Source: Escherichia coli
GTDB taxonomy: Bacteria > Pseudomonadota > Gammaproteobacteria > Enterobacterales > Enterobacteriaceae
Assembly: GCF_003334785.1 (NCBI RefSeq)
Contig: NZ_QOWV01000019.1
Strand: one strand, 5' to 3'
Length of the DNA: 64,000 nucleotides
Of the stretch, positions 4,209-4,379 are shown one piece after another (positions within the stretch are counted from its first letter, which is position 1; every line of letters starts with the position of its first letter). A model generated the notes under the pieces. It had not been told where the DNA came from. It did no database searches and saw only the letters and a program-made list of their open reading frames with translations. Both the position numbers and the translations under genes were made by a program.

Positions 4209-4379
4209 TCAGGCTACAGCTTTAAGATTTGTCTGGAATACTTTGTTGCAATGAGGGCAGATCAAAAGGGCACCTTTTTGTACTCTTGAAAAACTGTGTT
4301 CTGACTCTTGGGTGCAGTTTGGGCAGGAACATTTAACGAGATAATTACGGCGTGATTTTGAGTTTTTACGTTCTGACAT
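4209..4379 (-). CDS. Small zinc-ribbon protein, 56 aa (C-x-C-x2-C ... C-x2-C)
   Basis: Inside ORF-track frame 4209..4430; ATG at 4379 preceded by AGGAAAAG; MSERKNSKSRRNYLVKCSCPNCTQESEHSFSRVQKGALLICPHCNKVFQTNLKAVA. Confidence 0.45.
   Translation of the reverse strand: MSERKNSKSRRNYLVKCSCPNCTQESEHSFSRVQKGALLICPHCNKVFQTNLKAVA

Follow-up and report, generated by a model that had tools for sequence, protein, structure and literature searches.

YnfU of the Escherichia coli Qin prophage: a small putative zinc-ribbon protein without detectable homology to YnfQ and a frequent neighbour of cold-shock genes

This study focused on a short open reading frame (ORF) that lies between the cold-shock gene cspB and a holin gene in a stretch of Escherichia coli DNA of 64,000 nucleotides, referred to here as the window. 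An earlier, sequence-only reading had taken it for a zinc-ribbon mini-protein and for a paralog of a similar ORF beside cspI, and had proposed, from the placement of both next to prophage cold-shock genes, a functional link to the csp cargo. Is the ORF a gene, is it related to its supposed partner, and does its company say anything about what it does? The ORF itself was found exactly where it had been reported, its 56 codons filling positions 4209-4379 of the minus strand, stop codon included. RefSeq places ynfU (b4776, 'putative zinc-binding protein YnfU') at the same coordinates, with K-12 MG1655 among the genomes so annotated, and the Qin cryptic prophage of that strain is identical to window positions 3001-7000. 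Outside this interval the window departs from K-12, with several 500-base blocks having no exact match. The gene is flanked by cspB (3630-3845, plus strand), with which it is convergent, and by the holin gene essQ (4599-4814, plus strand), from which it diverges. The genes of the region are the following.

3117..3329, minus strand: cspF, divergent from cspB (ORF list, annotation)
3469..3861, plus strand: cspB mRNA leader and coding sequence (CDS 3630-3845), of the cspA-thermoregulator type (RF01766, 158.8 bits, gathering threshold 78)
4209..4379, minus strand: ynfU coding sequence, 56 aa and stop (translation, RefSeq annotation, NF038384, PF23499)
4599..4814, plus strand: holin gene of the essQ/essD type, divergent from ynfU (ORF list, annotation)
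6371..6756, plus strand: cspI mRNA leader and coding sequence (CDS 6517-6729), of the cspA-thermoregulator type (RF01766, 112.8 bits)
6740..6928, plus strand: ynfQ (b4724), encoding a YmcF-like zinc ribbon of 62 aa with an ATT start (annotation; PF23641, E=1.8e-32)
6931..7576, plus strand: ynfR (6931-6996), ynfN (7001-7231) and gnsB (7403-7576), the rest of the cspI-side cluster (ORFs, annotation)

The lysis cassette begins at the holin gene, continues with ydfR-rrrQ-rzpQ and runs to 6154. Coordinates of ynfR, ynfN and gnsB were taken from the annotation of an identical locus (L001, offset 1499). The ynfN product is annotated as 76 aa here and in many E. coli strains, and as 51 aa in K-12 MG1655.

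The ORF is a genuine protein-coding gene, and one that was already known and annotated. Its translation product, MSERKNSKSRRNYLVKCSCPNCTQESEHSFSRVQKGALLICPHCNKVFQTNLKAVA (minus strand, 4209-4379), matched NCBIfam model NF038384 with 79.4 bits (cutoff 36) over residues 1-51, the model having 52 positions, and Pfam family PF23499 at E=3.9e-31 from position 1 to position 49 of 49, a full-length family match. YnfU was discovered by ribosome profiling with stalled initiation complexes and confirmed by chromosomal SPA tagging and immunoblotting; its level was the highest among the newly identified small proteins, it was abundant in LB at 37 °C, and its two CPXC zinc knuckles were remarked upon (Weaver et al., bioRxiv 10.1101/511675). 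A lack of detectable translation had been named in the sequence-only reading as an outcome that would speak against it, and translation has been detected. The orthologues of ynfU are under purifying selection, with a median dN/dS of 0.09 over 432 pairs drawn from 50 sequences. The possibility that the frame is open by chance, or that the feature is non-coding and resembles a zinc ribbon by coincidence, can be practically dismissed: the gene is short, and an in-frame ATG upstream at 4430 offers an alternative product of 73 aa, but the tagged protein has been observed, the dN/dS value is low, the curated family is represented at 62 species-level loci, and both sequence conservation and the Shine-Dalgarno signal point to the 56-aa start. 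The 73-aa reading was itself rejected, since conservation, Shine-Dalgarno and annotation all begin at 4379.

Signals for expression were found on both sides of the gene, and comprise the following.

4383..4390, minus strand: ynfU Shine-Dalgarno region AGGAAAAG, with AGGA 7 nt upstream of the ATG (sequence)
4407..4415, minus strand: conserved upstream box GTGTACTGT, consensus GTGTAtGGT (alignment of 24 upstream regions)
4438..4467, minus strand: sigma-70-like match TTGAAA-18-AATAAT upstream of ynfU (consensus scan only)
4127..4146, no strand assigned: GC-rich hairpin between the convergent cspB and ynfU (terminator scan)

The first of these bears out the earlier remark that the ORF has a good ribosome-binding site, and orthologous ynfU loci keep the motif CAGGA(A/G) with unchanged spacing to the ATG. 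Further upstream, the G, T, A and G, T columns of the GTGTAtGGT box were invariant in the 24 aligned regions, which came from different genera and species, and this box, about 28-36 nt before the ATG, is probably a -10-like promoter element; its position implies a short ynfU leader. The arrangement seen across genera consists of an A-rich stretch, AAGCAAT, some 15 nt and then GTGTAtGGT, with a poor -35 region. The sigma-70-like stretch at 4438..4467 showed no conservation in other genera when the upstream regions were aligned. A leader of the cspA type was also sought at ynfU, and neither RF01766 nor any other Rfam model matched over positions 4150-4600 at E≤0.1. The hairpin at 4127..4146 is the cspB terminator on the plus strand; it is possibly also a weak terminator for ynfU, the T-tract on the minus strand being poor. 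Because ynfU is on the opposite strand to the late/lysis operon and is preceded by a conserved region and a Shine-Dalgarno sequence of its own, it behaves as prophage cargo that is expressed by the host cell and not as a lysis gene.

The long stretch that separates the cspB stop codon from the terminator hairpin also holds an unannotated mini-ORF of 11 codons (MKQWLAYLAKS, 3957-3992, plus strand), preceded at a spacing of 8 nt by a near-perfect Shine-Dalgarno sequence, AAGGAGG, at 3942-3948. Among the loci fetched it occurred only in the Qin-type loci of E. coli and in phage HannyBb (L080), where it carries one substitution.

The ORF next to cspI, with which YnfU had been compared, is ynfQ. 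The sequence-only reading had described the same cysteine architecture in both, and the layout is indeed as described. YnfU has cysteines at 17, 19, 22, 41 and 44, forming CPNC at residues 19-22 and CPHC at 41-44 with an 18-residue spacer, and YnfQ has them at 9, 11, 12, 34 and 37, with 21 residues between its CxxC knuckles; each protein therefore has two such knuckles, 18 or 21 residues apart, and one extra cysteine. The pattern CxxC-x10-30-CxxC is uncommon here: of the 776 segments of 40 aa or more that run from stop to stop in the window, only 3 have it, and two of the three are YnfU and YnfQ. The further claim, that the two are paralogs, fared otherwise. Duplication of one zinc-ribbon gene within the prophage, each copy becoming partnered with a csp gene, would fit the small size of both proteins, their common layout and the distance of less than 2.5 kb between the genes, and it would also fit their matches to NF047912, which are below threshold for both (13.1 and 17.8 bits, cutoff 37). 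This last family (ECs_2282) was considered as a bridge between YnfU and YnfQ and was rejected, both matches being far under the cutoff.

Direct comparison points the other way. The Smith-Waterman score of YnfU against YnfQ was 25, inside the distribution given by shuffled sequences (mean 23.7 for full shuffles, p=0.37; mean 27.2 with cysteines held fixed, p=0.64), and an alignment no better than shuffled controls is what the sequence-only reading itself had named as evidence against paralogy. BLASTP returned no alignment between the two at E≤100. Comparison of the family profiles by hhalign, with two alignments built from database searches, gave probabilities of 1.3% and 2.0%, and placed the C-terminal knuckle of YnfU on the N-terminal knuckle of YnfQ, which is the wrong pairing. 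The curated families are also separate, PF23499 and NF038384 for YnfU and the YmcF-like PF23641 for YnfQ, and PF23641 was absent among the 33 domains reported at E≤10 in a Pfam scan of YnfU. The conserved residues other than cysteine differ (SEHSFSRVQKG in YnfU, GSQYRTSxFD...NPFGAK in YnfQ), and in the AlphaFold model of YnfQ the ribbon is followed by a C-terminal helix (residues 44-57), a topology unlike that of YnfU. The true K-12 paralog of YnfQ is YmcF, going by the database names of the YnfQ matches. Paralogy of YnfU and YnfQ is thus very improbable; as far as sequence comparison can tell, YnfU is without detectable homology to YnfQ, and what they have in common is only the generic layout of a zinc ribbon with two CxxC motifs.

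The start of ynfQ is unusual in its own right. No canonical start codon lies upstream of the N-terminal zinc knuckle, and the annotated ATT follows an AAGG/GAGG Shine-Dalgarno sequence. In 15 YmcF/YnfQ homologues that adjoin ynfU (the loci given for this observation are L012, L037, L039, L044, L045, L048, L053-L055, L063, L069 and L071), the aligned start codon was ATT in seven, ATC in two, ACT in three and ATG in only three. That a small cold-shock protein keeps a start codon other than ATG may be of regulatory significance, for example through IF3-dependent discrimination. The gene name also needs care. A 37-aa hydrophobic ORF is found upstream of ydfK (window 11804-11917(-) and 11502-11735(-)), and VanOrsdel et al. 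(2018) list this one peptide as both ynaM and 'ynfQ', so that the ynfQ of that study is a different gene from today's b4724.

The YnfU protein is basic (pI 9.6, family median 9.7), with an N-terminal tail rich in Lys and Arg. Its zinc ligands are probably C19, C22, C41 and C44, and zinc binding is predicted from this motif here as it was, likewise from sequence, by Weaver et al. Across 24 family members, distant ones included, P20, C22, S29, L39 and C44 were invariant, and C19, S26, H28, C41, P42 and F48 were at least 90% conserved; the S-E-H-S / RVxK segment between the two CPxC knuckles, present in YnfU, is likewise a conserved feature of the family. A profile search with the YnfU alignment against 1.84 billion representative proteins returned only 39 matches, and the distant ones that were fetched all retain CPxC-x3-(S/A)EHS...LICPxC. 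The AlphaFold model of YnfU shows four strands in a compact ribbon, and one short helix. Fold searches gave non-significant matches only, to various zinc ribbons, among them small archaeal ribosome-bound zinc fingers, eS27, L37Ae, LysW, ZitP and Tim15, and together with the PDB profile searches they justify the description 'zinc ribbon' and nothing more. Searches of PHROGs yielded at most weak matches to families of unknown function.

One genome per species was scanned, which gave 62 loci with a YnfU relative, nearly all of them in Enterobacteriaceae. A gene for a cold-shock-domain (CSD) protein was present within 500 bp of ynfU at 45 of these loci, the other 17 having no adjacent CSD gene, and a YmcF/YnfQ homologue was found within 1.2 kb at 14; the divergent upstream neighbour was often a YnfN homologue. 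When the loci were clustered by their outer flanks they fell into 25 genomic contexts, and in 21 of these a ynfU adjoins a CSD gene. A csp gene beside ynfU matched the cspA-thermoregulator model in 12 of 14 diverse loci tested. The arrangements were several: csp genes convergent with ynfU (in some cases as a convergent and a divergent pair, as in Qin), csp in tandem downstream, or a csp-ymcF block divergent from ynfU. The tandem form is seen in the Klebsiella oxytoca group, where a strong terminator lies between ynfU and csp and rules out an operon of the two genes.

The Qin gene order recurs in a Citrobacter locus (L012, 3497-5524), where gnsB-ynfN-ynfQ-csp is followed by ynfU and then by csp-csp, the arrangement of Qin minus the lysis cassette. 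This locus is situated between purB and a response-regulator gene, with an integrase fragment alongside. Across Enterobacteriaceae, ynfU belongs to a recurring island of genes of the cold-shock type, in which a cspB/cspF-like pair stands on one side of it and a cspI-ymcF/ynfQ-ynfN-gnsB block on the other; in Qin, the lysis cassette parts ynfU from the cspI block. The two csp clusters of Qin (cspF-cspB-ynfU and cspI-ynfQ-ynfR-ynfN-gnsB) are contiguous and in Qin order at this place in the Citrobacter chromosome, with no essQ-ydfR-rrrQ-rzpQ. This points to a single ancestral cargo island as the source of both, either interrupted by the lysis genes in Qin or remaining once these had been lost. 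The literature found on ynfU does not discuss the csp, ymcF and ynfN neighbourhood, and its conservation is a modest addition that is both new and testable. The identity of the ORF as ynfU, its non-paralogy with YnfQ and this synteny can be asserted jointly with high confidence, a statement from which function is excluded.

The proposal that a link to the csp cargo underlies the position of the gene beside csp genes gains independent support in part: the adjacency recurs, mostly outside prophages, and may reflect either a functional link or the co-inheritance of a mobile island. On the functional side, YnfU might serve as a small, zinc-stabilised adaptor for nucleic acid or RNA, for the ribosome or for a protein partner, and its setting might be the stress physiology of cold and long-term stationary phase in which the Csp RNA chaperones encoded next to it take part. 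Other genes of the region give indirect context only: cspB, cspF, cspI, ynfN and ydfK show increased levels during long-term stationary phase (PMC7406224), and AZT treatment co-induces cspI, ynfQ and ynfN (PMC11228462). No data on ynfU expression at low temperature were found in the literature and supplements searched; the abundance of YnfU at 37 °C means that it is not cold-specific. Also weighing against such a role are the missing cspA-type leader of ynfU, the 17 loci that have no CSD gene beside it, the distant relatives and the phages in which csp genes are not adjacent, and the Klebsiella terminator. The one phenotype-like mention of the gene, a low-frequency polymorphism between ynfU and cspB reported from a silver-nanoparticle evolution line, is uninformative. 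That YnfU binds zinc and acts as such an adaptor in Csp stress physiology is a working model put forward tentatively, and we consider it rather unlikely as it stands.

The main rival to this adaptor model is that the adjacency to csp genes represents hitch-hiking, ynfU being unrelated cargo in a mobile, prophage-derived cassette and having a function apart from cold shock; examples would be the handling of zinc or other metals, or a phage-host interaction tied to the spot beside the holin. The occurrence of the island in 25 flank contexts suggests mobility, and may just as well reflect a prophage-derived island that travels as a block; the integrase fragment beside the Citrobacter island is consistent with the same idea. 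Eight phage records carry ynfU, and in functional temperate phages the gene lies beside the holin with csp genes near or not, some having no csp immediately adjacent. Also in keeping with hitch-hiking, ynfU is present, as a single copy, in only 1650 of 5426 complete E. coli genomes, the more distant members of the family mostly have unrelated neighbours (in one case a csp-ymcF pair lies 2 kb off), and the gene has its own putative promoter and an abundant product at 37 °C. However, the adjacency survives rearranged architectures, whether csp is convergent, tandem or divergent and whether or not ymcF and ynfN are present, and it survives where no phage marker is near, holin, lysozyme or Q markers having been found within 5 kb at 5 of the 62 loci and at none of the other 57. 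Only one CSD match lay more than 1 kb from ynfU in all the flanks, and PADLOC defence models gave no family at E≤1 for either YnfU or YnfQ, which also weighs against unrelated cargo. We regard hitch-hiking as a serious possibility, if one that we would not back outright.

At the level of the gene and protein, ynfU is already catalogued and nothing is added here, and the claim of homology to YnfQ is wrong. The value lies in the comparative result, that a well expressed small protein of E. coli accompanies cold-inducible csp genes, ymcF/ynfQ and ynfN in most of the enterobacterial species sampled, and that its company with csp persists through several rearrangements, mostly outside prophages. 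For a y-gene such as ynfU, the synteny provides a hypothesis that is concrete and cheap. In its boldest form, YnfU would be an unrecognised component of the enterobacterial response to cold shock and long-term stationary phase, a zinc-dependent, basic mini-protein that works on the RNA or ribosome substrates of CspB, CspF and CspI, or directly with these proteins. This is unlikely, and it is offered as speculation. If it were true, the 'cold-shock island' (cspB/F, ynfU, cspI, ymcF/ynfQ, ynfN and gnsB) would be a functional module that lambdoid prophages move between hosts.

The relationship of YnfU to known proteins can be set out by family. The YmcF-like proteins (PF23641; YmcF and YnfQ in E. 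coli) resemble it in being small (~62 aa), in having two CxxC knuckles and in being encoded beside cold-inducible csp genes. Their genes immediately follow cspI or cspG in the same orientation, while ynfU is a solitary gene, and the proteins differ further from YnfU in their C-terminal helix, their frequent non-ATG start and their conserved motifs. Generic Cys4 zinc ribbons from the machineries of translation and transcription (the small archaeal zinc fingers bound to ribosomes, 9o17_AZ and HVO_2753-like, and eL42/L44e, eS27, L37Ae, TFS/RpoM and LysW) are, like YnfU, small basic proteins with a two-knuckle ribbon of about 40 residues. The best Foldseek match was 9o17_AZ, with a probability of 0.96 and 33% identity over 36 columns. 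L44e shows a local likeness, CPxCxxxxEHS(F/V)S, seen as a PDB profile match over 17 residues (E=0.0096). YnfU was rejected as a member of eL42/L44e, given a score of 10.5 bits to PRK05767 (cutoff 87), the 18-residue spacer and the lack of a long insert.

A moderate threading match of YnfU to the zinc domain of P. aeruginosa PA0128 was reported earlier (Weaver et al., bioRxiv 10.1101/511675). This domain is the N-terminal zinc ribbon of PhnA/YjdM (PF08274; PA0128, PDB 2AKL), and Pfam Zn_Ribbon_YjdM matched YnfU residues 19-44 at E=3.1e-4. It is a short match at the level of the knuckles, with a PDB profile E-value to 2akl of 0.97, and YnfU has no counterpart of the C-terminal domain of PhnA. 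The closest correspondence is with the YnfU family itself, whose type member is YnfU/b4776 of E. coli K-12: the copy in the window shows no sequence difference from it, and occupies the same slot in Qin.
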